From an uncultured Desulfohalobiaceae bacterium (GTDB lineage Bacteria > Desulfobacterota > Desulfovibrionia > Desulfovibrionales > Desulfothermaceae): 64,000 bases of DNA. Below, piece by piece: positions 24,910 to 43,448 of the stretch. How positions within the stretch are numbered: position 1 is the stretch's first letter; each line of letters starts with the position of its first letter. Under the pieces are notes generated by a model. It was given only the letters and a program-made list of their open reading frames with translations, did not search any database and had not been told where the DNA came from. Where the stretch lies: assembly GCA_964573115.1 (NCBI GenBank), contig CAZNIP010000004.1:1190-65189 (forward strand), read 5' to 3'. The translations under genes were made by a program, and so were the position numbers.

Positions 24910-25129
24910 TTTCAACCCTGGGTCATCAGTCCGGCCAGAGGCTGTGCTGATGGCCGAATTCGCGCGGCATCTCCTGAGTCGTTGCAGCCGCATCATGCCT
25001 GCCGGATGATGAAAAAAATATTGTCTCCTGTCTGGATTTGCTCTACAAATATGGATTGACCCCATCTTTGGTCAGATGTTCCTCAAGAGGGGGGACCAGA
25101 GACAACTGTGCCGCCAGGAGACGAACCCC

Positions 25130-25558
25130 ATGAAAGACACCCTTGAATCGCTTGTTTCTCAAATCCAGGAAGATATTGACCAGAAGACCCTTGAGGACTA
25201 TGGATCCGATTTTTTTCAGCGCTGGAGGGATCCACAGTTCATGGGCAGAATGGAGACCCCGACCGTTTCAGCCGCATTGACAGGCAGCTGCGGCGATCGA
25301 ATCGAGATCGAGCTCAAGATAGACAACGAGACCATCACCCATGCCCAGTTCTTCACCACCGGGTGCGGTCCGAGCATCGCCTGCGCCAACACGGCCTGCG
25401 AGCTGGCCATGAACAAGGACCTCGAAGAGGCGGCCGGGCTTGAAGGCCAGGATATCCTCAAGGTGCTGAAAACCGTGCCTGAGGACAAGGAGCACTGCGC
25501 CCACCTCGCTGCCCAGACCCTCAGGGAGGCCATCCGCAACTACTGGGCCCGGCATTGA
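25130..25558 (+). CDS. NifU N-terminal/IscU-like Fe-S scaffold protein
   Basis: The three scaffold Cys are present in GSCGDRIEIELKI, FFTTGCGPSIACA and EHCAHLAAQTLREAI. A CAGGAG RBS precedes ATG 25130. Confidence 0.8.
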   Translation: MKDTLESLVSQIQEDIDQKTLEDYGSDFFQRWRDPQFMGRMETPTVSAALTGSCGDRIEIELKIDNETITHAQFFTTGCGPSIACANTACELAMNKDLEEAAGLEGQDILKVLKTVPEDKEHCAHLAAQTLREAIRNYWARH

Positions 25559-31691: not shown

Positions 31692-32546
31692 ATGAGCCAG
31701 ACCACGATCACCGTTCTCTGCGAAAACACGGCAGCAGGGCCTATGGGGCTCATTGGCGAGCACGGTTTTTCAGCCCTGATTCAGGGCGACAACGGGCCGA
31801 TCCTCTTCGATACCGGCCAGTCCATCTCCCTTGGCCACAATGCCCCTCTTCTGGGGGTCGATCTCAAGGACATCCAGACCGTGATTCTCAGCCACGGCCA
31901 CTACGACCACACTGGTGGGCTGCCGGCCGTGCTCCATCCCCCAAGAGGGGTCGAGGTCATTGCCCATCCAGACATCTTCACGGCCAAGTACGCCGAGTTC
32001 GAAGGGCCACAAGGCATGGTGCGCCCGTTTATCGGGATCAGGACCAGGCGGGAGTTTCTGGAGGGCTCGCTCGGGGCCAGGTTCACCTTTGTCCGGGAGA
32101 TGACCGAGATCAGGCCGGGGATCTTCTTTTCCGGGGAAGTCCCGAAAAAGACGGATTTCGAGCACCCGGACCCCAGGCTCAAGGTCGATCAGGGAGGCCA
32201 GCTGGTTGAGGATCCCCTTTTGGACGACATCAGCCTGCTCATCGAGACGGATTCAGGGCCGGTGATCCTCCTGGGCTGCGCCCATTCCGGGGTGGTCAAC
32301 GTCATGAACCATTTTGCCGAACACACGGGACACACCACATTTCACGCCGTCATCGGAGGCACCCACCTGGGGTTCATGGGCGGCCCGGGCCCCCAGCTGG
32401 AAAGAGCCATGGACGCCTTTGACGATTACAAGGTGCAGCTCATCGGGGTGGCTCACTGCACAGGGCAGGAAGCCGCCGCCATCTGCCACCACCGTTTTCA
32501 GGACAGGTTCGCCTTTGCCAGTGTGGGCTGGAGGACGACGTTCTGA
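31692..32546 (+). CDS. MBL-fold metallo-hydrolase (second, unrelated paralog)
   Basis: Carries the SHGHYDHTGG motif. 284 aa, with a GAGGAGG RBS. Confidence 0.8.
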   Translation: MSQTTITVLCENTAAGPMGLIGEHGFSALIQGDNGPILFDTGQSISLGHNAPLLGVDLKDIQTVILSHGHYDHTGGLPAVLHPPRGVEVIAHPDIFTAKYAEFEGPQGMVRPFIGIRTRREFLEGSLGARFTFVREMTEIRPGIFFSGEVPKKTDFEHPDPRLKVDQGGQLVEDPLLDDISLLIETDSGPVILLGCAHSGVVNVMNHFAEHTGHTTFHAVIGGTHLGFMGGPGPQLERAMDAFDDYKVQLIGVAHCTGQEAAAICHHRFQDRFAFASVGWRTTF

Positions 32547-32557
32547 TCAGGGCTCCA

Positions 32558-32602
32558 GGAAGATGATTCAGCCTGGCCAGAGGCCAGGCTGAATCATCTT
32601 CC
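32558..32602. terminator. perfect 21-bp-stem hairpin with AGA triloop between convergent genes
   Basis: GGAAGATGATTCAGCCTGGCC-AGA-GGCCAGGCTGAATCATCTTCC. It overlaps the last 9 nt of the LarA-like gene. Confidence 0.7.
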
Positions 32603-33853
32603 AACCTTCCCCACGACGTAGGGTCCGTCCGGGGAGACGATGACCCTGGGGTGATCCGGAAGCAGCCTGTCCACAACGGACTGGACGTCATCGATCTTGA
32701 TCATCCCGGTTTTGGCCAGATCGTCCCGGGAGAGCCCGGGTGAATAGATGCAGACCTCCCCGGCGTGGTCCAGGGCCTGGTAGATGTTCTGGGCGCACCA
32801 CTGGTCGATGACAAAGTTGTCCGGCTCGCAGTAGTGGTCGAAAAACTCCTGGGGCGAGCAGACCGACTGCATGATGCCGCAGAACTCGGAGCTGCCCAGG
32901 CCCTCGCTGCATTCGGCAGCGATGACGATCGTCCCGCCTTTTCTGAGCATGTCTTTGGCGCAGGTCAACCCTTTGGAGACCTGGTACAGGGTTGCGTCAA
33001 GGGGGGCCCCGCCGCCGGAGGTGATGACCAGATCGGCCTCCTCCTCGACCTCGACCACGGAATGCTCCCTGACCATCTGGCATCCCCTGAGATGGGCCTG
33101 GTCGTAATGCCCCCCGAACACCCCGCAGAGCTCCCGGTCCGAGTTGATGACCACGTTGAGGATGAAATCCGCGCCAACGGTCCTGGTGACCCGAAGGCCG
33201 TAGTCGTGAAAGATGTTCCCGTCCAGAACGCAATTGGCCACCCCGGGATGGTCGATGACCTGAAAGGAGTGCATGAACTTCATGGTTTCATAGCTGGAGA
33301 TCCCCGGCAGAATGGCCTTCCGGCCGCCTGAGTACCCGGCGTAGAAATGGGGCTCGATGAGCCCGGTCAGGATCTTCAGGTCGGCCTCGAGGTAGTGGAC
33401 GTTGATCTCGATCGGGGCGCCCTCGATGCGGTCGATTTCCCGGACCTCCTCCGGTTTTCGGCAGTAATGGTTGATGATCCGGTAGTTACCCTTGATCTCC
33501 GGTCCCACCAGAGACTCCAGCTCCTGGCCTACATTGGGTCGATGCATGCCGGTGGCGATGAGGATGGTCATGCTGTCCCGTTCGATCCCCGCGGCTTCCA
33601 GGGTCTGGAGCATGGGAGGCAGAATGAGCCTGTTCGGGACCGGTCTGGTGATGTCCGAGATGACGATGCAGGCCGAATGCTTGCCCCTGGCCAGCTCTGC
33701 CAGGGGTGGGCTGGCCACGGGCTGCTCCAGGGAGTGAGAAACCGCGGCTTCCGGGTCAGAGAGTGGAGACACCGGCTTCATTTCCAGCAGGGTGGCCTGA
33801 TCAGGCACCGTGACCGGGATCGAGTCCTGTCCGCACAACAGATTGGCCTGCAT
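32594..33853 (-). CDS. LarA-like (nickel-pincer lactate racemase family, DUF2088) protein
   Basis: MQANLLCGQDSIPVTVPD...ACIVISDITRPVPN...ILIATGMHRPN...GYSGGRKAILPG are family-typical blocks. GGAGG precedes ATG 33853. Confidence 0.8.
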   Translation of the reverse strand: MQANLLCGQDSIPVTVPDQATLLEMKPVSPLSDPEAAVSHSLEQPVASPPLAELARGKHSACIVISDITRPVPNRLILPPMLQTLEAAGIERDSMTILIATGMHRPNVGQELESLVGPEIKGNYRIINHYCRKPEEVREIDRIEGAPIEINVHYLEADLKILTGLIEPHFYAGYSGGRKAILPGISSYETMKFMHSFQVIDHPGVANCVLDGNIFHDYGLRVTRTVGADFILNVVINSDRELCGVFGGHYDQAHLRGCQMVREHSVVEVEEEADLVITSGGGAPLDATLYQVSKGLTCAKDMLRKGGTIVIAAECSEGLGSSEFCGIMQSVCSPQEFFDHYCEPDNFVIDQWCAQNIYQALDHAGEVCIYSPGLSRDDLAKTGMIKIDDVQSVVDRLLPDHPRVIVSPDGPYVVGKVGR

Positions 33854-33867
33854 GAAACCTCCAGGGT

Positions 33868-35208
33868 TCAGAGTTGTTTGAGCAGCTGGTTGGCTGCCGT
33901 CAGCAGGGGATCCCAGACCGGCCCGAAAGGCGGGGCGTAGGCCAGGTCGCACTGGGCGAAATCGGCCACGGTCATCTGGGTGTGCAGAGCCACTGCGGCA
34001 GCGTTGATTCGGTGGGCCACCCCCTCGTTGCCCACCATCTGGGCCCCGAGAAGCCGCCCGGAGTCGGCATCCCCAATCATGTGCACCTTGATGCTCGAAG
34101 CCCCAGGGTGCCCGTGGGCCTTGTTCCGGGTCTCGATGGTGGCCGTTCGGGGGGAAAAGCCGGCCTTTTCGGCGTCCAGGGCGCTCAGACCGGTTGAGGC
34201 CACTTCAAGGCCAAAGACCTTGAAGACCGCTGTCCCGGCCACGCCCTGGATGCTGACCTCGCGCCCGGACAGGTGATCGGCCACGGCCCAGCCGGCCCTG
34301 TTGGCCCGCAGGGCCAGGGGAACCCACGTCCTCTCCCCGGTGACCACGTGAAAAGCGTCTGCGCAGTCTCCGGCCGAAAAGATGTCAGGATCCGAGGTCA
34401 GCATGGACCGGTCAACGGCAATGGCCTCATCAGCCCCAAGCTCCAGTCCGGCCTGGACAGCCAGCTCGTTGTTGGGTTGAACCCCAACAGCCACGATGAC
34501 CGCATCGCTGTCCAGGACCATATCCTGACAGACCACCTGGAGACGCTGGCCCTTTCCCTGAATGGATTCGATGGCCTGCCCGGGATGGATCTCAACACCC
34601 TGAGTCTTCAGCTCGGCCCAGACCATGTCCGAGAGTTCTTCGTCCATCCAGGGCAGGAGGACCGGTCTGGGTTTGACCATCGCGACCCCGATGCCTCTGG
34701 CCCGCAGAGCTTCGGCCATCTCCATGGCGATGTAGCCCATGCCGATGAGGGTCACCTGACGGACCTCGTTCGCGGCCAGATAGCTCTTGATCTGCCGGCC
34801 GTGCTCGAGGCTCTTGAGCACCAGCACGCCGTCGCGGTCAAAGCCCGGGAGGTCGGGAACCCTCGGTGACGCCCCGGTGGCGATGAGCAGCCTGTCATAA
34901 TCGGCCTGAAATGGAGCCTTGTCGGTGGTCAGCCCGGAGACCCTCTTGTTCTCCCGATCGATGGCGGTCACCCGATGACCCAGCCGGAGATCAATTCCAG
35001 CCTTGTCCCTGAAGACATGAGCCGGCCTGACCACCAGATCTTCGATGGGCCGATCGGGCTCGGCAATGTTGTAGGGCATGCCGCAGGCGCTGTAGGACAC
35101 GTCCTGGGTCTGTTCAAAAACGGTCACCTCAAGGTCGGTGACCTTTCTCCTGGCCCTGCTTGCAGCGCTCATGCCGGCAGCATCACCGCCTATGACCACA
35201 AAACGCAT
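33868..35208 (-). CDS. CoA-disulfide reductase / NADH oxidase-type pyridine nucleotide-disulfide oxidoreductase
   Basis: MRFVVIGGDAAGMSAASRARR and the single redox Cys motif SYSACGMPY, plus a second Rossmann fold VTLIGMGYIAMEMAE. AAGGAG precedes ATG 35208. Confidence 0.8.
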   Translation of the reverse strand: MRFVVIGGDAAGMSAASRARRKVTDLEVTVFEQTQDVSYSACGMPYNIAEPDRPIEDLVVRPAHVFRDKAGIDLRLGHRVTAIDRENKRVSGLTTDKAPFQADYDRLLIATGASPRVPDLPGFDRDGVLVLKSLEHGRQIKSYLAANEVRQVTLIGMGYIAMEMAEALRARGIGVAMVKPRPVLLPWMDEELSDMVWAELKTQGVEIHPGQAIESIQGKGQRLQVVCQDMVLDSDAVIVAVGVQPNNELAVQAGLELGADEAIAVDRSMLTSDPDIFSAGDCADAFHVVTGERTWVPLALRANRAGWAVADHLSGREVSIQGVAGTAVFKVFGLEVASTGLSALDAEKAGFSPRTATIETRNKAHGHPGASSIKVHMIGDADSGRLLGAQMVGNEGVAHRINAAAVALHTQMTVADFAQCDLAYAPPFGPVWDPLLTAANQLLKQL

Positions 35209-35336
35209 GGCACACTCCTTGGAAATCTCCATGAGAACTGATATGTCGACATCACATCCTCGGACAGCGTGATTGAAATTATCCTTTTTGACCACCACTG
35301 ACAACCTGGGCCGATCCGGCCAGACAGCGCAACCTT

Positions 35337-36674
35337 ATGGAAAAACAGCCTCTTGCTGAAGATGCGACCTCCATTATTCTGGAGTCCATTTCCGATGGTG
35401 TCTTCACGGTTGATGAGTCCTGGAAGATCACCTCCTTCAACCGGGCGGCCGAGAGCATCACGTCCATTCCAAGGCAGGAAGCCCTGGGCAAATACTGCTG
35501 GGAGGTCTTCAGATCGAGCATGTGCGAGACAGGCTGCCCTTTGCAACAGACCATGGACACCGGCTCGCCCTCCATCAACGTGCCGGGCTACATCGTCACT
35601 GGAGAGGGGGATCAGAAGCCGGTAAGGGTCTCCACGGCCCTGCTCAGGGACAGTGAGGGCACTCTCCTTGGAGGCGTTGAAACCTTCAGGGACGTGAGCG
35701 AAGTCGAGCATCTGCGTCGGCAGCTCCAGGACCGTTTCCAGGTCGGCGACATGGTCAGCCGCAGCAGGGCCATGGCCAGGATCTTCAAGGTGCTGCCGAG
35801 GATCGCCGAAAGCAGGAGCACCGTGCTCATTGAGGGCGAGACAGGAACCGGTAAGGAGCTTCTGGCCAGGGCGGTCCATCATCTGAGCCCCCGCAGGGAC
35901 AAGCCCTTTGTGCCGGTGCACTGTGCCGCCCTTCCGGACACCCTCCTGGAGTCGGAGCTGTTCGGCTACAAGGCCGGGGCCTTTACCGATGCCTCCAGGG
36001 ACAAGAAGGGGCAATTCGCCCTGGCAGACGGGGGAACCGTCTTTCTGGACGAAATCGGCGAGACCAGCCAGGCTTTCCAGGTCAAGCTCCTCAGGGTCCT
36101 CCAGGAACGGGAGTTCACGCCTCTCGGGGCGTCGTCGGCCGTCAGGGTCGATGTCCGGGTCATTGCCGCCACCAATCGTGACCTCGCGGACATGGTCGCC
36201 CGGCAAGAGTTCCGCCAGGACCTCTTCTACCGCATCAACGTGGTCCGACTCGAGCTGCCGCCGCTTCGGGAACGCAAGGAGGACATCCCCCTGCTCGTGG
36301 AGCATTTCGTGAACAAGCTCAACGCGGTCTACGGAAAAACCGTTCGCGGTCTGTCCCAGGACGCCCTGAGTCTGCTCATGGGCCACGATTTTCCCGGCAA
36401 CATCAGGGAGCTGGAAAACATCCTGGAGCACGCTTTCGTCCTCTGCAACACGGATCTGATCCAGGAGGTGCACCTCCCCGAGAACCTGAAAAACAGTGTC
36501 CCGCCTCCTGCAGCCGGCCATGAACTCAAGAGGACGGTTGACACCCTGGAAACGCAGACCATCAAAGAGGCTCTTGAGCGCAACCTGGGCAACGTGACCC
36601 AGACAGCCCGCCAGCTTGGGATGCACAAGTCCACCCTGTACCGGAAAATGAAGCGCTACGGGCTTTCCCGGTGA
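35337..36674 (+). CDS. sigma-54-dependent transcriptional activator (PAS + AAA+ + HTH)
   Basis: 445 aa with GETGTGKEL, ESELFGYKAGAFTDA (a GAFTGA variant) and the C-terminal HTH QTARQLGMHKSTLYRKMKRYG. The PAS domain carries CWEVFRSSMCETGCP. Confidence 0.9.
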   Translation: MEKQPLAEDATSIILESISDGVFTVDESWKITSFNRAAESITSIPRQEALGKYCWEVFRSSMCETGCPLQQTMDTGSPSINVPGYIVTGEGDQKPVRVSTALLRDSEGTLLGGVETFRDVSEVEHLRRQLQDRFQVGDMVSRSRAMARIFKVLPRIAESRSTVLIEGETGTGKELLARAVHHLSPRRDKPFVPVHCAALPDTLLESELFGYKAGAFTDASRDKKGQFALADGGTVFLDEIGETSQAFQVKLLRVLQEREFTPLGASSAVRVDVRVIAATNRDLADMVARQEFRQDLFYRINVVRLELPPLRERKEDIPLLVEHFVNKLNAVYGKTVRGLSQDALSLLMGHDFPGNIRELENILEHAFVLCNTDLIQEVHLPENLKNSVPPPAAGHELKRTVDTLETQTIKEALERNLGNVTQTARQLGMHKSTLYRKMKRYGLSR

Positions 36675-36703
36675 ATGGCCTGTCCCCTGGACAGGCCATT
36701 CAC
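36671..36703 (+). terminator. terminator hairpin overlapping the EBP stop codon
   Basis: GTGAATGGCCTGTCC-cct-GGACAGGCCATTCAC forms a 15-bp stem, with a T-rich tail further on. Confidence 0.75.
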
Positions 36704-36939
36704 CATCCTGTTTTCATCGTCAAGCAGCCGTGACATCCTTGGACCTCGCAGAACCTTTCATGCTCGTCCGGAACGTTCAACTCAGGATTGAATTCGTCGC
36801 GTTTTTGCAACTCATTGACGCGATTCTTCGCGAATCTGCACCACTTTTCTCCTCCACTCCACACCCTTTGACCGCTTCTTCTCCTTTAAAAATCATAGAA
36901 TGATTGAATATTATTTTTTTTGCACACTTTATGCAAAAC

Positions 36940-37329
36940 ATGGCCATGAGTCGTGTCGTGCTGTCAGTCTGGGATCATCGTGTATCCCCGGTCTTTGAAA
37001 CCTGCTCGCAGCTCCTGATGGCGGAGACGGGCCGCTGGCCGGCCGACGTTCAGGTCGTGGCCGCCTTTCTCCCTGGCGAGCCGGAGCTGAACCGGGTTTT
37101 CAAGACCCTTGAATCTGGGGCGCAGACCCTGATCTGCGGAGCCATCTCCAGACTGTATCTGAACATGATCACGGCTTCATCCATTCAGGTTGTCCCCTTT
37201 GTCACCGGTGAGGTCACGGAGATCATCCGGGCTCACTCCCGGAACCGTCTCAGTGCGGAACGTTTCGGGATGCCGGGGTGCCGGAGGCAGCGTCGGCGGC
37301 AGCGAGGCAGAGGACACGGATCATGGTGA
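36940..37329 (+). CDS. NifX/NifB-C-terminal-like (dinitrogenase FeMo-cofactor-binding fold) protein with an Arg-rich tail
   Basis: ...VLSVWDHRVSPVFETCSQLLMAE...TLICGAISRLYLNMITASSIQVVPFVTGEVTEIIRAH resembles the PF02579-type fold (recollection only). The tail reads GMPGCRRQRRRQRGRGHGSW. The start is uncertain (36904 TTG, or 36931/36940/36946 ATG, none with a clear RBS). Confidence 0.5.
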   Translation: MAMSRVVLSVWDHRVSPVFETCSQLLMAETGRWPADVQVVAAFLPGEPELNRVFKTLESGAQTLICGAISRLYLNMITASSIQVVPFVTGEVTEIIRAHSRNRLSAERFGMPGCRRQRRRQRGRGHGSW

Positions 37330-37366
37330 TCAACGTGAAGATAAGACCACACAGGAGGATCAAATC

Positions 37367-37585
37367 ATGCCACGAGGAGACGGAACAGGACCGGCAGGTC
37401 AGGGGCCGGCAACAGGACGGGGACTGGGGCCCTGCCGAAGCGGGCAGCAGGCGATGAATCGCACCCCTGAGGGGAATCAGGGTCAGTCTTTCTGGTCCAG
37501 ATTGTCCAGAGGGTTTCGGCGAAACCGCCCGGGTCAAGGGTCCGGCATGGGCCGGGGCCGCGGCGGTGGCCGTTCCGGGTGGTGA
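37367..37585 (+). CDS. DUF5320 family protein (copy 1)
   Basis: MPRGDGTGPAGQGPATGRGLGPC... is the hallmark N-terminus MPRGDGTGPxGxGPxTGRGxGxC. It has an RG-rich tail GMGRGRGGGRSGW. An AGGAGG RBS is present. Confidence 0.7.
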   Translation: MPRGDGTGPAGQGPATGRGLGPCRSGQQAMNRTPEGNQGQSFWSRLSRGFRRNRPGQGSGMGRGRGGGRSGW

Positions 37586-37641
37586 TGGCCTTTGTCAATG
37601 TCAGTCAGGAAAGCCAAGAAAAGCAATGGAGGACATCGAAC

Positions 37642-37992
37642 ATGCCATGGGGAGACAGAACTGGACCAATGGGTTGGGGACCAATGACCGGTCGAGGTTT
37701 TGGATACTGCAGCGGCAGTGAACAGCCTGGTTTTGCCGCCGGCCCGGGACTGGGCCGCGGCTGGGGCGGCGGTCGCGGCCGCGGCAGAGGCTTTGGCCCG
37801 GGCAGAGGCTTCGGGCGCAGAGGGTGGTATGGGGCCTGGCCCCCGGCAGCTCCCTACCCGTCATCAGTTCCTGCTGCAACCATGTCCGTTGAGCAGGAAA
37901 AGGACATGCTCAAGAGGGAGGCCCAAAACCTCAGAGAGACCATGAACAGGCTTGAACAGAGAATTCAGGAGCTTGAAGATCAGTCGTCCTGA
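37642..37992 (+). CDS. DUF5320 family protein (copy 2) with C-terminal coiled coil
   Basis: MPWGDRTGPMGWGPMTGRGFGYCSG..., then the RGG tract GLGRGWGGGRGRGRGFGPGRGFGRRGWYG, then EQEKDMLKREAQNLRETMNRLEQRIQELEDQ. A GGAGG RBS is present. Confidence 0.75.
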   Translation: MPWGDRTGPMGWGPMTGRGFGYCSGSEQPGFAAGPGLGRGWGGGRGRGRGFGPGRGFGRRGWYGAWPPAAPYPSSVPAATMSVEQEKDMLKREAQNLRETMNRLEQRIQELEDQSS

Positions 37993-38051
37993 GCCAGTCC
38001 AGCCGCCGGCAACCGGAGAGTCTCCGGGATGCCGGCGGCTCTGGTTGTCCT

Positions 38052-38990
38052 ATGAGTCACTACGCCACACTGTTTGGACCGGTCCCTTCCCGACGTTTCG
38101 GGAGATCTCTGGGAATCGACCTGACACCGCTCAAGACCTGCTCCCTGGACTGCGTCTTCTGCCAGCTCGGCCGGACCACAGTCCACACCGTGGATCGGAG
38201 GCCCTATGTTGACCTCGGACTGGTCATTCAGGAGCTCAGGGACTGGTTTGACCGGGACGGTCAAGCCGATGTCCTGACCCTGTCCGGCTCCGGGGAACCG
38301 ACCCTGCACAGCGGCTTTGGGGATGTCCTCGAGGCCATCGCCGAGACGAGTGGGCTCCCAAGCCTCCTTCTGACCAACGGGACCCTGCTGAACCGCAAAG
38401 AGGTCCGTCAGTCCGCGAGCAAAGCGAACATGGTCAAATCCTCCCTCTGCGCCTGGGACGAGGCCTCCTTCCAGGCCATCAACCGTCCCCATCCCCGGAT
38501 TCATTTTCAGGACTTTGTTCAGGGGCAGGTCGACTTCAGAAAGGTCTACTCCGGTCAGCTCTTTCTGGAGGTTTTTCTGCTGCAGTCCATGAACGACGCT
38601 CCAGAGCAGATACAGGCCATTGCTGAGATCGCAGGAGCCATCGAGCCGGACAGGATCCAGCTGAACACCGTGGACCGCCCGCCTGCAGAGACCTACGCCC
38701 GCCCGGTGCCTCTGGAACAGCTGAGAGTGGCCAGGGAGACCTTTGGCCCCAGGGCCGAGATCATCGCCCGGCAGCCGGTTTCACCCGGCGCCAGGGCTTC
38801 CCTGACCAGGGAGGCCATCGTGAACATGCTCCGCAGACGCCCGGCGACCATGGAGCAGCTCTGCAATCTGACAGGCAGGCATCGCAACGAAATCGCCAAG
38901 ATCATGGCCCAGCTCCATGAGGAAGGAACGGTGACCTGGCGGACCACCCACGGGGAGCAGTTCTACCTGGTTCCTGAATTCAAGGCATGA
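38052..38990 (+). CDS. radical SAM protein with a C-terminal winged-helix-like extension
   Basis: GPVPSRRFGRSLGIDLTPLKTCSLDCVFCQLG contains the CxxxCxxC motif. The C-terminus is ...MLRRRPATMEQLCNLTGRHRNEIAKIMAQLHEEGTV. Confidence 0.85.
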   Translation: MSHYATLFGPVPSRRFGRSLGIDLTPLKTCSLDCVFCQLGRTTVHTVDRRPYVDLGLVIQELRDWFDRDGQADVLTLSGSGEPTLHSGFGDVLEAIAETSGLPSLLLTNGTLLNRKEVRQSASKANMVKSSLCAWDEASFQAINRPHPRIHFQDFVQGQVDFRKVYSGQLFLEVFLLQSMNDAPEQIQAIAEIAGAIEPDRIQLNTVDRPPAETYARPVPLEQLRVARETFGPRAEIIARQPVSPGARASLTREAIVNMLRRRPATMEQLCNLTGRHRNEIAKIMAQLHEEGTVTWRTTHGEQFYLVPEFKA

Positions 38991-39146
38991 TCCAGTTTTT
39001 GAGGGGGCCTCACTCCCCGCGGAAAGGTGTTGCCCTGCGGGCATTCGTGTTGCCTCCTCCCTGCAAATCAAGTAAGATCCCCCATCGCCTGTGATGACGT
39101 TCCATACGAGCCCGGCCGGAGGCCGGACTGAAGAGGTTGTCTGTTC

Positions 39147-39578
39147 ATGAAGCTCTCGACACGCAGCAGGTACGGCATTCGATTGCTGGCCGACATCGCC
39201 CGACAAGGGAACAGCGCAGTGGTCACCCTCCAGGAGGTGGCCGACCGGCAGAACATCTCTTTCAAGTATCTGGAGAAGATCACCAGAATCTTAAAAGAAG
39301 CCGGATACCTGTCCGGTAAAAAGGGACCAAACGGCGGGCATCGCCTGAACCGCTTTCCCCAGGACATCCTCATCGGTGACCTGGTGATCGTCCTCGAGGG
39401 CAACCTTGAGCTCGTGGACTGCACCAAAGGCGATCAACCCTGTCCGCGGCTCCCTAGCTGCCGCACCCATCAGGTCTGGGACGATCTGAAAAACATCATC
39501 CACCAGAAGCTCAACGCCATCAGTCTGGCCGACCTCATCCGCGATGAGGAGGAGTGCACTCTGATGTTCAGGAATTGA
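39147..39578 (+). CDS. Rrf2-family (IscR-like) transcriptional regulator with three-Cys cluster motif
   Basis: MKLSTRSRYGIRLLADIAR...VTLQEVADRQNISFKYLEKITRILKEAGYL...VDCTKGDQPCPRLPSCRTH. Confidence 0.9.
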   Translation: MKLSTRSRYGIRLLADIARQGNSAVVTLQEVADRQNISFKYLEKITRILKEAGYLSGKKGPNGGHRLNRFPQDILIGDLVIVLEGNLELVDCTKGDQPCPRLPSCRTHQVWDDLKNIIHQKLNAISLADLIRDEEECTLMFRN

Positions 39579-39855
39579 TGGCTTTCCTGGTGGTTCACCG
39601 AATCTGCACTCCATGGTTCCAACTCTCCAACACTGCCCTGCCCCAATGCACTGCAGTTCCCTGACACCGGCCCGATCCTTTTATTCTCCGTATTGACACG
39701 CTTGAGGCCGTCCTGATATGGATCTGCATTTGTTTTTTGCACGACTTGATATGCTCCCCGGCATTTTCCTGCGGCTGCCAGGCCATTGATCTGAATCCAC
39801 CGCTGGCAGTGCTTCAACCGGGTCTGACCTTCACTCTCTGAACACAGGAGGATCT

Positions 39856-40536
39856 ATGATTGTCGCCAAGAGAAAGCCCTTTGATGAAATCAAGACATCC
39901 GTCGACGAGTACGCAAAGATTCTGACCGTGGGATGCGGCACCTGCGTGGCCGTATGCCTGGCTGGCGGCGAAAAGGAAGTGGCCAACCTGAACGCCGAGC
40001 TTGAAATGGCCAGAAAGATCGCCAAGAAGCCGGTTGAGCTGGGGGCCAAAACGGTTGAGCGTCAGTGCGACATGGAGTTCCTGGCAGAGCTCGATTCCAT
40101 GGTCAGCGACTACGATGCCCTGATTTCCCTGGCCTGCGGGGTCGGGGTTCAGTTCCTGGCCGAACGATACCCGCATATTCCTGTCTTTCCCGGTGTGGAC
40201 ACCACCTTCATGGGCGCCAACCGGGATGTCGGCTGGTACGAAGAGCGGTGCCGCGGCTGCGGGACATGCGTCCTGGCCTACACCGCCGGCATCTGTCCGG
40301 TGACCACCTGCGCCAAGGGACTGTTCAACGGCCCCTGCGGCGGGACCAATGCCGGAAGTTGCGAGGTCGACCCCTCCCAGCCCTGTGCCTGGTACAACAT
40401 CTACCATCGACTGGCGCAGCAGGGTCGGCTGGACAACATCATGACGGTCTTCCCGGCCACGGAGTGGCGGAATCAGATCCCCAGAACCGTGATCCAGCCC
40501 GGCTACGAACAGAAAGTCACGAGTGAAAAAGCCTAG
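39856..40536 (+). CDS. methylenetetrahydrofolate-reductase C-terminal-domain (MetV-like) Cys-rich protein
   Basis: Carries GCGTCVAVCLAGG, RCRGCGTCVLAYTAGICPV and the hallmark LFNGPCGG. An AGGAGGA RBS is present. Confidence 0.75.
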   Translation: MIVAKRKPFDEIKTSVDEYAKILTVGCGTCVAVCLAGGEKEVANLNAELEMARKIAKKPVELGAKTVERQCDMEFLAELDSMVSDYDALISLACGVGVQFLAERYPHIPVFPGVDTTFMGANRDVGWYEERCRGCGTCVLAYTAGICPVTTCAKGLFNGPCGGTNAGSCEVDPSQPCAWYNIYHRLAQQGRLDNIMTVFPATEWRNQIPRTVIQPGYEQKVTSEKA

Positions 40537-40566
40537 CGCCCTACCCCAAACATAAGGAGCTCCCAA

Positions 40567-41802
40567 TTGAAGAGCAAAAGTGTCATCATCATCGGCGGTG
40601 GCATTGCCGGTCTGACTGCTGCATGGGAACTGGCCCAGCAGGATGTGGGTGTGCATCTCGTTGAGAAGGGTCATTTCCTGGGAGGTCATGCCATTCACTA
40701 CAACTGCAAGGCCACAGACGTGTGTCAGCAATGCGATGCCTGCACAGTGGAGAAAATGCTCAAAAACGTGGTCTCCGAACCTCGCATCACTGTGCATCTG
40801 GCCTCGAACGTTCAGAGCATCTCAAAGAACACAGGCTTCGCAGTCACCTTGGACAAGAGGGCCCAGTACGCCTCTCCCCGGGAGCAGGAGCACCTGTCGG
40901 CAGCCTATGCCCGCTGCCCTGTCCCTGGAGCCATTCTGCGGGGAAGGTCCATCAACAACTCCCCCCTGTTCGCCCTGGATGAAAGCCTGCTTCCGCAGCT
41001 CAAGGACCAGCTCCCGGACCTCTTCGGACCGGACGGGCTGGATGCGAACAAAGAACCAGCTCAGGAAACCCTCAAGGCCGACGCCGTCATCCTGGCCACA
41101 GGGTTTGAACCATTCCACCCTGAAGACAAACCCACCTACAACTCGGCCTCTCTGAAGAACGTGGTTTCCGCCCTGGACATGGAAAAGATCAAGAAGGAGC
41201 AGGGACACTACGTTCGCCCTTCCGACGGACGGCCTCCGCACAGAGTGGCCTTTATTCAGTGCGTCGGCAGCAGGAATGAGCAGCTCGGACACCTGTGGTG
41301 CTCCCACGTCTGCTGCCCCTACGCCCTGCGCATGGCCGAGGTGATGAAGAAAGACGATTCAGAGACAGACATCACGGTCTTTTACATGGATATTCAAAAC
41401 ATCGGCAGGGACCATCCGTCGTTTTACCAGCAATGCCAGTCAGACTTCCGTTTCGTGCGGAACATCCCGGTGGACATCTACCCCGGGGAGAACGACTCCA
41501 TGCTGGTCAGCTACATGGATGAGAGCGACGAAAAGGTCATCCGCGACCCTTTCGATCTCGTGGTCCTCTCGGTGGGGATCATGCCTGGACAGGACAATGC
41601 CCGGCTGGCCGAAATGGCCGACATTTCCCTGACACCCAATGGGTTCCTTCAGTCCGCAAGCGAGCTTGACACCACCTCCACCGCCGTGGAGGGCATCTTT
41701 GCTGCCGGGACGGCCACAGGGCCAAAGAGCATTGCCGAGAGCATGGTCAATGCCGGGCAGGCCGTGCGCAATACGGTCAAACACTTAGGGGTATCCAAAT
41801 GA
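40567..41802 (+). CDS. HdrA-like FAD-dependent oxidoreductase
   Basis: TTG start 7 nt after AAGGAG. VIIIGGGIAGLTAAWELAQ is the dinucleotide fold. It also has VCQQCDAC, and QCVGSRNEQLGHLWCSHVCC is typical of the HdrA Fe-S region. Confidence 0.75.
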   Translation: MKSKSVIIIGGGIAGLTAAWELAQQDVGVHLVEKGHFLGGHAIHYNCKATDVCQQCDACTVEKMLKNVVSEPRITVHLASNVQSISKNTGFAVTLDKRAQYASPREQEHLSAAYARCPVPGAILRGRSINNSPLFALDESLLPQLKDQLPDLFGPDGLDANKEPAQETLKADAVILATGFEPFHPEDKPTYNSASLKNVVSALDMEKIKKEQGHYVRPSDGRPPHRVAFIQCVGSRNEQLGHLWCSHVCCPYALRMAEVMKKDDSETDITVFYMDIQNIGRDHPSFYQQCQSDFRFVRNIPVDIYPGENDSMLVSYMDESDEKVIRDPFDLVVLSVGIMPGQDNARLAEMADISLTPNGFLQSASELDTTSTAVEGIFAAGTATGPKSIAESMVNAGQAVRNTVKHLGVSK

Positions 41803-43448
41803 CTGACATGCAGACGATCCCAACGATGGAAACTGACGTGAACACCCGTGTCCTGGTCATCGGCGGAGCCTGGTCAGGGGCCCGGACTGCCGCCGAGCTG
41901 GTGGATCAAGGATACGGCGTGACCCTGGTCGAAGAGGCCCCGACGCTGGCCAAGGCCAGGGAAGCTTCGAGTTTTTATTCCCGGCTCGTTCCCGATCGGG
42001 ACACGCCACTTCTGGAGACGGTCCAAAAGGTCGAAGACATGGACCACATCGAGCTTCTGACCTCAGCCAGCCTCCTCCATGTGGACGGCCTGCCAGGGAA
42101 TTTCCGGGTCAAGCTCAATGTCGGCGGGCAGATCAAGGACCTCGATGTCGGAGCCGTGGTCGTGGCCACGGATATTGAAGCCAGGCCTGCCTTCGAGACC
42201 TACGGACTGACCCCTGGGGACAAGGTCGTTGGCCTGAGCGAGCTGGAGAGCACCTTGCAGTCCAGGCCGCCGCAGGACGCCAAAGTCGCTTTCCTGGCCG
42301 GGTTCTGCGATGACGGCTCGCCACTGTCCATGGAAAGGATCATGCGCTCGGCCCTGCAGGTCCAGGAAGGTGGGTCCCAGGCTTATGTCTATGTCAGAAA
42401 CATCAAGGTGGCAGCCGAGGGACTGGAAAAACTCTACAAGACAACCCGGGACAAGGGCGTGCTCTACTTCAAGCTCCAGGACAAGCCGGAGCTGGACGGG
42501 GACGGCTCGAGCCTGGTCTTCCTGGATCCGGTCCTGTCCCAGCAGGTTGAGCTCAAACCCGACCTGATGGTGGTCGAGGATCAGCTCGCAGCCAACCATC
42601 TCAACCAGCGTCTGGCCGAGCTCCTGCGCATCGACCTCGGCCCCGGAAACTTCATCCAGGAAAACAACGTGCACCGTTTCCCTGTCCACTCCAACAGGGA
42701 AGGCATCTTTGTGGCCGGAGGCAGCCGGGATGCGCTCAGCCTCCCGGACACGCTGGCCGATGTCGGGAACGTGGCTCTGGAAGTGGCCCGATTCCTGAAC
42801 GACGGGCACAAGAGCGTGCCCGAGCACATGGGCATCGTGGACCGGGAAAAATGCTGCTTCTGTCTGACCTGCTACCGCTGCTGCCCCCACGGTGCCATCA
42901 CCTGGGAAGACAAGCCGGTCATCTCCTCCATCGCCTGTCAGGGATGCGGCATCTGCGCCAGTGAATGCCCTCAGGACGCCATTCAGATCGTGTCCTTTGA
43001 AGACGACACCATCAAGCAGGCCATCAAGGCCCACCTGGCCGCTCAGGCCGAAAGTCCGACCATTATCGCCTTCTGCTGCGAGAACTCGTCCCTGGAGGCC
43101 GGGCACATGGCCCAGACCTTCAATCGACCGCTACCGGCCGGGCTGAAGATGATCAAAATCCCCTGCGCCGGCAAGGTCGACCTGGACTACATCTTCACCG
43201 CCTTCCTCAACGGCGCTGACGGCGTCATGGTTCTGAGCTGCCATCCGGGCAACTGCAAGTCGGTCCGGGGCAACACCTTTGCCAGCTGGCGGGTGGACAA
43301 CGCCTATCGCATGCTGGACAATGCCGGAATGAACCACAGCAGGCTCCTGACCGCCAGTCTGGCTTCGAACATGGATGTCGAGTTCTCTGAGCTGGCCACC
43401 CGGATGGAAGCCAGCCTGAACGAGCTCGGACCTTCCCCTCTGAAGTAA
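41799..43448 (+). CDS. HdrA-like flavoprotein / 2x[4Fe-4S] ferredoxin / MvhD(FlpD) fusion protein
   Basis: ATGA overlap with the upstream gene. It carries VLVIGGAWSGARTAAELV, CCFCLTCYRCCPHGAI and CQGCGICASECPQDAI. The C-terminal IIAFCCENSS...IKIPCAGKVD...MVLSCHPGNC is an MvhD-type domain. Confidence 0.8.
   Translation: MTDMQTIPTMETDVNTRVLVIGGAWSGARTAAELVDQGYGVTLVEEAPTLAKAREASSFYSRLVPDRDTPLLETVQKVEDMDHIELLTSASLLHVDGLPGNFRVKLNVGGQIKDLDVGAVVVATDIEARPAFETYGLTPGDKVVGLSELESTLQSRPPQDAKVAFLAGFCDDGSPLSMERIMRSALQVQEGGSQAYVYVRNIKVAAEGLEKLYKTTRDKGVLYFKLQDKPELDGDGSSLVFLDPVLSQQVELKPDLMVVEDQLAANHLNQRLAELLRIDLGPGNFIQENNVHRFPVHSNREGIFVAGGSRDALSLPDTLADVGNVALEVARFLNDGHKSVPEHMGIVDREKCCFCLTCYRCCPHGAITWEDKPVISSIACQGCGICASECPQDAIQIVSFEDDTIKQAIKAHLAAQAESPTIIAFCCENSSLEAGHMAQTFNRPLPAGLKMIKIPCAGKVDLDYIFTAFLNGADGVMVLSCHPGNCKSVRGNTFASWRVDNAYRMLDNAGMNHSRLLTASLASNMDVEFSELATRMEASLNELGPSPLK

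Follow-up and report, generated by a model that had tools for sequence, protein, structure and literature searches.

What do small arginine- and glycine-rich proteins do next to a NifX-like protein and a radical S-adenosylmethionine (SAM) enzyme? We asked this of a locus in a 64-kb stretch of DNA (about 60% GC; called the window below) from an uncultured Desulfohalobiaceae bacterium, where four genes follow one another on the forward strand at 36946-38990: those for a NifX-like protein, a short DUF5320 protein, a full-length DUF5320 protein and a radical SAM enzyme. The set, to which an earlier note on this DNA had drawn attention, is no orphan: it reads as a reduced version of the published orange-protein (ORP) cluster of Desulfovibrio and is related to IssA (PMC8359166, PMC6345978, PMC5524996). 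The note had left out the OrpR-type activator gene that lies upstream. Judged by its genes and upstream sites, the locus is a putative OrpR-controlled, ATPase-less orp-type operon enriched in DUF5320. That it serves as a reduced ORP/IssA-type module handling metal-sulfide clusters is, in our estimate, an evenly balanced proposition.

Upstream elements resembling those of an orp cluster

The gene at 35337-36674 (forward strand) encodes an OrpR-type sigma-54 enhancer-binding protein with PAS, AAA+ and Fis-type helix-turn-helix domains (Pfam PAS, Sigma54_activat and HTH_8). Its PAS domain carries a cysteine triad, C54-x8-C63-x3-C67, with an acidic residue (E56) at +2, and the protein has the motif GAFTDA. 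The same triad and GAFTDA are found in eight of nine related enhancer-binding proteins whose genes adjoin DUF5320. OrpR itself has C52, C61 and C65, an acidic residue (D/E) at position 54 and GAFTDA (PMC8359166, PMC4641369). Its PAS domain is a redox sensor that uses a [4Fe-4S] cluster on these three cysteines, and in Desulfovibrio vulgaris OrpR (DVU2106) controls the sigma-54 promoters of a cluster made up of orp7-orp8-orp9 and orp5-orp4-orp3 (PMC8359166, PMC6345978, PMC3897727, PMC4641369).

A predicted intrinsic terminator of the activator gene, a 16-bp stem followed by a T-run (36670-36704, forward strand), separates it from the downstream operon. Beyond the terminator are two putative OrpR-like upstream activating sites (36796-36842, forward strand), GTCGCGTTTTTGCAAC at 36796-36811 and TTCGCGAATCTGCACC at 36827-36842, whose spacing, read from the sequence, is 31 bp. 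Paired GTCGCA-N4-TGCGAC palindromes occupy the corresponding place in related loci. In D. vulgaris the OrpR sites of DVU2107, GGGCGYRTTTTGCGCCC, are at positions -160 and -129, which again is a spacing of 31 bp (Kazakov et al. 2015 supplement). An activator with the hallmarks of OrpR, together with two upstream sites 31 bp apart, thus points to a reduced orp cluster.

The first gene of the operon is preceded by a degenerate sigma-54 promoter-like element, TTGCAC-N5-ATGCA (36920-36935, forward strand), which was called from comparative alignment with relatives only. In five of these (L010, L042, L021, L070 and L080) a canonical TGGCAY-N5-WTGC lies 28-40 nt 5' of the NifX-like start. A scan of the whole window with the sigma-54 consensus gave no enrichment (51 matches vs 72.7 expected). 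The conserved ATG at 36946 stands only 11 nt past the -12 GC of the element, and the same holds in L001, a Desulfohalobiaceae genome with an orthologous locus whose small proteins are 72-79% identical to those of the window; a transcript from this element would therefore be leaderless or nearly so. Unlike these two, L042 has a canonical promoter, a leader and a Shine-Dalgarno sequence. Sigma-70-like hexamers are enriched at 36868-36914 (5 vs 0.5 expected).

Two DUF5320 paralogues with an invariant N-terminal motif

The Arg/Gly tracts that the note had quoted from three consecutive small proteins are all present, one each in the NifX-like protein, the short DUF5320 and the long DUF5320. All three genes are under purifying selection, with ratios of nonsynonymous to synonymous substitution rates (dN/dS) against L001 of 0.205, 0.170 and 0.205, respectively, and a Shine-Dalgarno sequence is well placed before each. 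The identification of the second and third genes as tandem DUF5320 copies is borne out by matches to PF17253 at 34.9 and 102.9 bits (cut-off 27 bits), the accession given in the note being correct.

The short paralogue (37367-37585, forward strand; 72 aa) consists of the N-terminal Cys motif and an Arg/Gly tail, without a coiled coil. Its match is restricted to positions 1-52 of the profile hidden Markov model (HMM) and it has no helix; by this alignment it is therefore a truncated paralogue, and it recurs in other genomes, with orthologues in L001, L042, L080, L019 and L021. Its isoelectric point (pI) is 12.0, and AGGAGG stands 8 nt 5' of its ATG. The full-length protein (37642-37992, forward strand; 116 aa; pI 9.8) matches across its whole length (HMM positions 1-99) and runs from the N-motif (residues 1-25) through a Gly/Arg/aromatic tract (26-63) and a Pro-rich segment (64-82) to a coiled-coil helix (83-115). 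In the AlphaFold model, residues 1-82 mostly have a confidence (pLDDT) below 65 and are predicted to be disordered; residues 83-115 form a single helix with pLDDT above 90, in which a 3-4 heptad pattern can be read from the sequence (L90, A94, L97, M101, L104, I108, L111).

The N-terminal motif, which had looked invariant between the two copies, proved to be so across 27 diverse homologues as MPxGDxTGPxGxGPxTGRGxGxC. It contains one Cys and, among the best 150 representatives, nearly always begins at residue 1. The family is large and old: a word-indexed search gave 654 relatives, all with PF17253, and an exhaustive profile search gave 4010 representative clusters (50% identity, E<=1e-10). Two peptide patterns taken from a 13-sequence DUF5320 alignment and used to search species genomes for loci matched 543 of them, including Asgard, DPANN and candidate phyla radiation (CPR) lineages. 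Tandem short and long copies occur in at least 10 of 81 loci, and at times there are three copies. Sequence searches of the PDB with DUF5320 returned solely low-complexity matches to RG tails and coiled coils, with nothing related beyond those. The searchable literature assigns no function to DUF5320, as the note had supposed.

In-frame double N-motifs are common among DUF5320 calls, many of which are 160-190 aa long (P0021, P0241, P0242, P0245, P0252 and P0272). In these calls a mini-protein, MPxxxGTGPxGxGPxTGxGxGYC(V/I)(V/L), is followed 20-50 residues further on by a full DUF5320 that itself starts with Met; the calls could represent one protein or two. At the nucleotide level, an Rfam search of 36500-39700 gave no match, and the DNA tandem repeats of this interval are trivial GGCCGC runs.

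The NifX-like protein and its fusions to DUF5320

The first gene of the operon (36946-37329, forward strand) encodes a NifX/MTH1175-like protein of 127 aa. We place its start at 36946, not at 36940 or 36904, as the ATGAGTCG start is conserved in the alignment with L001 and L042. Of the two Pfam families to which the note had looked for the genes flanking DUF5320, PF04055 is matched by the radical SAM enzyme at 38.3 bits (cut-off 29.5 bits). PF02579 stays below its cut-off of 26.3 bits for the window's NifX-like protein alone (19.4-19.8 bits), though eight of the nine members of its subfamily match. The members of this subfamily share invariant LICGAIS and MPGC motifs and, after them, a poly-Arg tail. 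A PDB sequence search with the window protein by itself found no match; the subfamily profile matches solved structures of the MTH1175/TM1290 type (1rdu, E=6e-9; also 1eo1, which is MTH1175). An MPGC-type NifX-like gene is the first after the OrpR-type activator in eight of nine OrpR-type loci, the exception being L064.

In several other genomes the NifX-like domain and DUF5320 are parts of one protein. A 268-aa protein of L087 combines PF02579 (87.5 bits), PF17253 (34.1 bits) and two Fer4 domains. In L080, a 270-aa protein joins NifX, a DUF5320 tail and a ferredoxin, and its operon also has a short and a long DUF5320. A 222-aa protein of L086 has a NifX-like domain (PF02579, 76 bits), long GRGMG repeats and a coiled coil (PF17253, 24.3 bits). 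P0498 is an MPGC-type NifX (PF02579, 38.5 bits) with a short DUF5320 (28.9 bits), and P0486 is built likewise (PF17253, 25.6 bits). Related arrangements are an MPGC-type NifX followed by an Arg/Gly linker and a 4-Cys ribbon (P0484 and P0468) or by a 100-residue Gly/Arg tail (P0488).

These architectures recall IssA of Pyrococcus furiosus (PF2025), in which a NifX-like domain is followed by a 70-aa disordered tail of Pro, Gly, Arg and aromatic residues that holds the only Cys (PMC5524996). The published criteria for such tails are a pI of at least 9, fewer than 5 Cys and a Gly content of 20% or more over the last 40 residues. NifX-like proteins that satisfy them in full occur in six DUF5320 loci, and those of 16 more, the window among them, satisfy the looser IssX criteria; the window protein has a pI of 10.9 and 3 Cys.

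Conserved neighbourhood of DUF5320

Open reading frames were called in 80 DUF5320 loci and clustered by all-against-all BLAST, and family labels were checked with Pfam. Partner frequencies were taken over the 35 loci of at least 15 kb (full-length loci). NifX-like genes are present in 86% of these, MinD/Mrp-type Fe-S ATPases in 77%, radical SAM genes of the window's family in 49% (31 of all 80 loci), NifU_N-like genes in 40%, DUF134 in 37%, a metallo-beta-lactamase fold in 34%, DtxR in 31% and FeoA/FeoB in 29%. Genes of iron uptake or regulation thus also keep company with DUF5320, which has such neighbours in bacteria and archaea alike. At least one core ORP-type partner is found in 34 of the 35. 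In Asgard genomes the layout is fixed: FeoB-FeoA, DUF5320-DtxR, radical SAM-NifU-MinD and NifX-MinD-MinD-DUF134-NifX. A reverse check from seven radical SAM homologues found orp-type partners in five contexts and a DUF5320 domain within 2.5 kb in three. The note had held that a lack of conserved synteny would speak against its grouping of these genes; because partners recur in 34 of 35 loci and in five of the seven reverse contexts, synteny is conserved. The metallocluster or cofactor context that it had proposed is thereby upheld, as it is by the NifX-DUF5320 fusions; the part of it that leaned on the neighbouring Rrf2 gene is not (see below).

DUF5320 is also kept beside NifX-like, MinD-like and DUF134 genes in CPR (L044, L079 and L087) and DPANN (L006, L011, L058 and L065) genomes. 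Its retention in reduced genomes suggests a housekeeping rather than an accessory role in anaerobic Fe-S metabolism.

In the window, a tblastn search for the MinD/Mrp ATPase families matched just the ferredoxin domains of HdrA-like genes. The relatives L010, L023 and L070 have such ATPases, and in L010 they lie directly upstream of NifU-like and beta-lactamase-fold genes whose window counterparts begin at 25076 and 31692. The first of these (25076-25558, forward strand; 11 kb from the set) encodes a NifU_N/IscU-like scaffold protein of a kind recurrent in orp-type clusters. It is 55% identical (tblastn) to the L010 orthologue beside the MinD-like ATPases, and its family matches Pfam NifU_N. 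The second (31692-32546, forward strand) encodes a metallo-beta-lactamase-fold protein that also recurs in orp-type clusters, its family being present in 16 of the 80 loci and lying inside the clusters of L082 and L083.

A further family of small proteins occurs in the same clusters. Its members have an Arg/Gly-rich N-terminus and a four-cysteine ribbon (CxCPxCG...CPxCG), match nothing in Pfam, and adjoin DUF5320 in six loci (L030, 16059-16247; L038, 6662-6898; L056, 3191-3367; L066; L071; L074). The ribbon is also found fused to MPGC-type NifX (P0484 and P0468) and to DUF134 (L060, 2296-2742), and one member starts with MPRRDGTGP, the N-motif of DUF5320. Orp5/Dde_3197, a small [2Fe-2S] protein of the ORP operon with "several cysteines" (Maiti et al. 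2016, cited in PMC6345978), is likewise a small protein of these clusters, and the ribbon family may be its counterpart, the two being matched by description and not by sequence. DUF5320 differs from Orp5/Dde_3197 in having one Cys and a coiled coil in place of the ribbon.

A radical SAM enzyme with a predicted winged helix

The last gene of the set (38052-38990, forward strand) encodes a 312-aa radical SAM enzyme of an uncharacterised family labelled COG0731. The CX3CX2C motif (C30-x3-C34-x2-C37) and a GPVPSRR motif are invariant in the family, which keeps about 50% identity across phyla, and the radical SAM fold is matched at a TM-score of about 0.53. As the note had claimed, the enzyme has a winged-helix tail, at least in the AlphaFold model (pLDDT 87): residues 253-306 (38808-38969, forward strand) are predicted to form three helices (253-262, 267-274 and 278-290) and then a two-strand beta hairpin (295-299 and 302-306), that is, a winged helix. 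The domain has no significant sequence match to any named winged helix-turn-helix family. Within it, RRRP(C)T and HxNE motifs are invariant in the family. Residue 265 of the window enzyme (38844-38846) is Ala at the Cys position of RRRP(C)T; it is Cys in 26 of 26 aligned homologues, including P0122, which is 71% identical.

In a structure search, the core of the enzyme resembles TYW1, viperin, NifB and PFL-activase about equally (E ~1e-9 to 1e-10), with NifB among the best matches (E ~3e-9). No NCBIfam model passes its cut-off, including those for NifB, MoaA and SPASM proteins, and the "wyosine synthase" label carried by homologues is therefore an automatic COG transfer. The label TYW1/wyosine synthase (JGI COG0731) was rejected on a TIGR03972 score of 29.5 bits against a cut-off of 317.95.

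A very stable RNA hairpin is predicted by folding between the long DUF5320 gene and the radical SAM gene (37992-38046, forward strand; -45.1 kcal/mol, z-score -4.98), and none of 200 shuffled sequences folds as well. At the same intergenic position L001 has a hairpin with different stem bases and L010 a canonical terminator. With a hairpin or terminator at this point, the small proteins are probably made in excess over the enzyme.

Flanking genes

An Rrf2 regulator gene (39147-39578, forward strand; Pfam Rrf2, 119 bits) follows the radical SAM gene. We rejected it as part of the DUF5320 set: among the 80 loci only L001 and L042 have an orthologue, and there it immediately precedes a MetF-C gene. 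L042 has no radical SAM gene, yet its Rrf2 gene still stands directly before the MetF-C and HdrA-like genes. Since Rrf2 is thus restricted to three close Desulfohalobiaceae loci and precedes MetF-C/HdrA-like genes, it provides weak context for DUF5320 and probably belongs with the genes downstream of it. In the window these genes (39856-43448) encode a MetF C-terminal-like Fe-S protein (PF12225) and two HdrA-like flavoproteins, the second of which has ferredoxin and MvhD-like Cys motifs. The same trio lies 3' of DUF5320 in L001, L010 and L042.

Divergent from the activator gene, on the reverse strand at 32594-35304, are genes for a LarA-like protein of lactate-racemase fold and for a pyridine-nucleotide disulfide oxidoreductase. 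Called from their first start codons the two reading frames overlap by 85 nt, so the LarA-like protein probably starts at an internal Met. The oxidoreductase recurs beside orp-type genes in L001, L010, L042, L082 and L085.

Discussion

What, then, might such an operon do? Two published systems offer precedents. The window shares with the ORP cluster of D. vulgaris Hildenborough an activator that has GAFTDA and a Cys triad in its PAS domain, a pair of palindromic sites with 31-bp spacing 5' of the first gene (in the window, candidate sites identified by sequence) and NifX/MTH1175-like proteins akin to Orp8. The two are also alike in their restriction to anaerobes, and loci related to the window hold the full set of MinD-ferredoxin and Mrp ATPases. 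The window operon differs in its additional genes, two for DUF5320 and one for a radical SAM enzyme. The ligand of orange protein is an anionic Mo-Cu-sulfide cluster, which is held non-covalently (PMC6345978). In D. vulgaris, DVU2107 (Orp7) is annotated "hypothetical protein" and DVU2105 (Orp5) "Major ampullate spidroin" (Kazakov et al. 2015 supplement). The latter annotation presumably stems from a Gly-rich tract, and DVU2105 or DVU2107 could be a member of the Arg/Gly-rich families found at these loci.

The second precedent is IssA, whose tail has been proposed to wrap anionic thioferrate into Fe-S storage nanoparticles (PMC5524996); the authors of the MrpORP work put IssA and orange protein in one family. 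Like IssA, the locus combines a NifX-like (IPR003731) domain with a cationic, disordered Gly/Arg/aromatic/Pro tract that has a single Cys, the tails being compared by description, and where DUF5320 is fused to a NifX-like domain in other genomes the architecture is that of IssA. In the window, the tail is instead split into separate genes, and DUF5320 has an invariant N-motif and a coiled coil, neither of which is described for IssA. A more distant parallel is the NifB/NifX/NafY system, in which a radical SAM enzyme, NifX-fold carriers, a NifU-like scaffold and P-loop Fe-S ATPases likewise come together; nifHDKEN genes are lacking here, and the window's radical SAM enzyme carries a winged helix in place of a NifX domain.

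By analogy with IssA, we infer that the DUF5320 proteins may be tail-only partners of NifX-like proteins, holding anionic metal-sulfide by charge. The activator, through its [4Fe-4S] PAS domain, would turn the operon on when conditions are reducing. An inorganic, anionic Fe-S species, possibly a Mo/Cu-S one, would bind non-covalently to the NifX-like domain. Arg/Gly tracts, both those in the tail of this protein and those in the two DUF5320 proteins, would neutralise the polyanion and wrap around it, in the way that the IssA tail has been proposed to do with thioferrate. Conserved Cys residues could cap or ligate the metal-sulfide species, and the DUF5320 coiled coil could join chains into larger assemblies, which may store cluster material or pass it to Fe-S assembly proteins. 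The radical SAM enzyme would act somewhere in the same pathway.

Several observations weigh against a metal-sulfide module of this kind. A tblastn search of the 64-kb window with 106 family members found no MinD/Mrp ATPase of the Orp3/Orp4/Orp9 type. In the candidate sigma-54 promoter, both the window and L001 have a degenerate -24 GG, with T for the first G (TTGCAC vs TGGCAC). The NifX-like tail of the window is poly-Arg, with 15% Gly over the last 40 residues, below the strict 20% criterion for IssA. Low-complexity tails resemble the DUF5320 profile partly by composition, and for two of the fusions the score is slightly under the Pfam cut-off. The published ORP phenotype is one of cell morphology, not of iron storage. 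Lastly, charge wrapping alone leaves the invariant N-motif unexplained; its presence speaks for a dedicated partner, be it a protein or a metal.

A more far-reaching form of the metal-sulfide reading, which we consider unlikely but worth stating, is that DUF5320 provides the polycationic scaffold for a coacervate or nanoparticle of protein and inorganic matter, a membrane-less, thioferrate-like Fe-S store. Here the role of the N-motif with its Cys would be to start the mineral chain or to cap it, and that of the coiled coil to fix the size of the particles. Such stores would be found widely among anaerobes, Asgard archaea and the reduced-genome CPR and DPANN lineages among them. NifX-like and tail proteins would then make up a general two-component system, of which IssA would be a special case with the two parts fused.

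The N-motif can also be read as a contact site for a protein. McdB, MinE and ParB use N-terminal peptides to contact ATPases, and DUF5320, with its invariant N-terminal peptide followed by a disordered region and a coiled coil, has a layout reminiscent of McdB and MinE. DUF5320 might accordingly serve the MinD/ParA-like ORP ATPases (Orp3, Orp4 and Orp9) as an adaptor or activator: the N-terminal peptide would contact the ATPase, and the disordered tract and coiled coil would self-associate and so position cargo or the septum. In 34 of the 80 loci a MinD/Mrp ATPase gene is found no more than 1.5 kb from DUF5320, such ATPases are present in 77% of the full-length loci, and the ORP complex has been tied to cell morphology, MrpORP being polar (PMC6345978, PMC8359166). 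The window, however, has the two DUF5320 genes and no such ATPase, the fusions that are seen join DUF5320 to NifX-like domains and not to ATPases, and the N-motif is Gly/Pro-rich, neither basic nor amphipathic. We therefore think this role distinctly improbable.

RGG-type repeats in small proteins raise another alternative, to which the note had also pointed, namely that the tracts bind nucleic acid (e.g. G-quadruplex RNA) or drive RNA-protein condensates, DUF5320 being a co-regulated small chaperone or regulator. Eukaryotic-type RGG/RG proteins and McdB do share with DUF5320 Arg/Gly repeats set among aromatics, predicted disorder and a coiled coil for self-association. A computational screen flagged the DUF5320 and DUF134 proteins of Methanosarcina mazei for an RG motif like that of G-quadruplex binders (PMC7565180), and DUF134, a predicted DNA-binding protein, adjoins DUF5320 in 30% of loci. 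DUF5320 lacks RNA-binding and other nucleic-acid-binding domains, however, and its conserved neighbourhood has no RNA-metabolism genes; the setting is one of metal and sulfur, not of RNA or DNA segregation. PDB matches to the RG tails of uS5 and SmD1 are low-complexity ones with E>0.001. The same tracts form the tails of NifX-like domains, where IssA sets a metal-sulfide precedent, and by analogy its cationic, thioferrate-wrapping tail would be a more specific precedent for the Arg/Gly tracts than RNA binding is. Nucleic-acid binding thus seems to us quite implausible as the role of these tracts.

Could the adjacent radical SAM enzyme instead have DUF5320 as its substrate? Recognition of the N-motif would then fall to the winged helix, and a residue such as the conserved Cys would be modified, in the style of protein maturation or of ribosomally synthesised and post-translationally modified peptides (RiPPs). 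The enzyme gene lies directly 3' of DUF5320 in the window and in L001, L025, L051, L069 and L082, the candidate N-terminus is conserved, and a winged helix (here predicted, with its invariant motifs) next to small conserved peptides is a feature of RiPP maturases. Against this, the enzyme is absent from about half of the full-length DUF5320 loci, two of the seven radical SAM contexts have no orp genes at all, and a terminator or hairpin stands between the genes. A SPASM or auxiliary-cluster domain, a protease and an exporter are all lacking, and the conservation of the enzyme family is far above that of typical RiPP maturases. We hold this explanation very doubtful. That the small Arg/Gly-rich reading frames are unexpressed chance frames, as many spurious Arg/Gly/Pro-rich frames overlapping real genes in this GC-rich window are, is effectively refuted and was rejected on their dN/dS (0.17-0.21), by Pfam scores above cut-off, thousands of homologues in both prokaryotic domains, conserved synteny and correctly spaced Shine-Dalgarno sequences.

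How strict anaerobes store iron and sulfur and supply them to Fe-S assembly is poorly understood, and what the ORP complex does has been an open question since 2011. Its ORP/IssA neighbourhood and its fusion to NifX make DUF5320 a candidate, and one that can be tested, for the missing "tail" of a store or carrier like IssA. If the metal-sulfide reading is true, the locus would be a bacterial case in which Arg/Gly-rich disorder serves the binding of an inorganic polyanion rather than of RNA.

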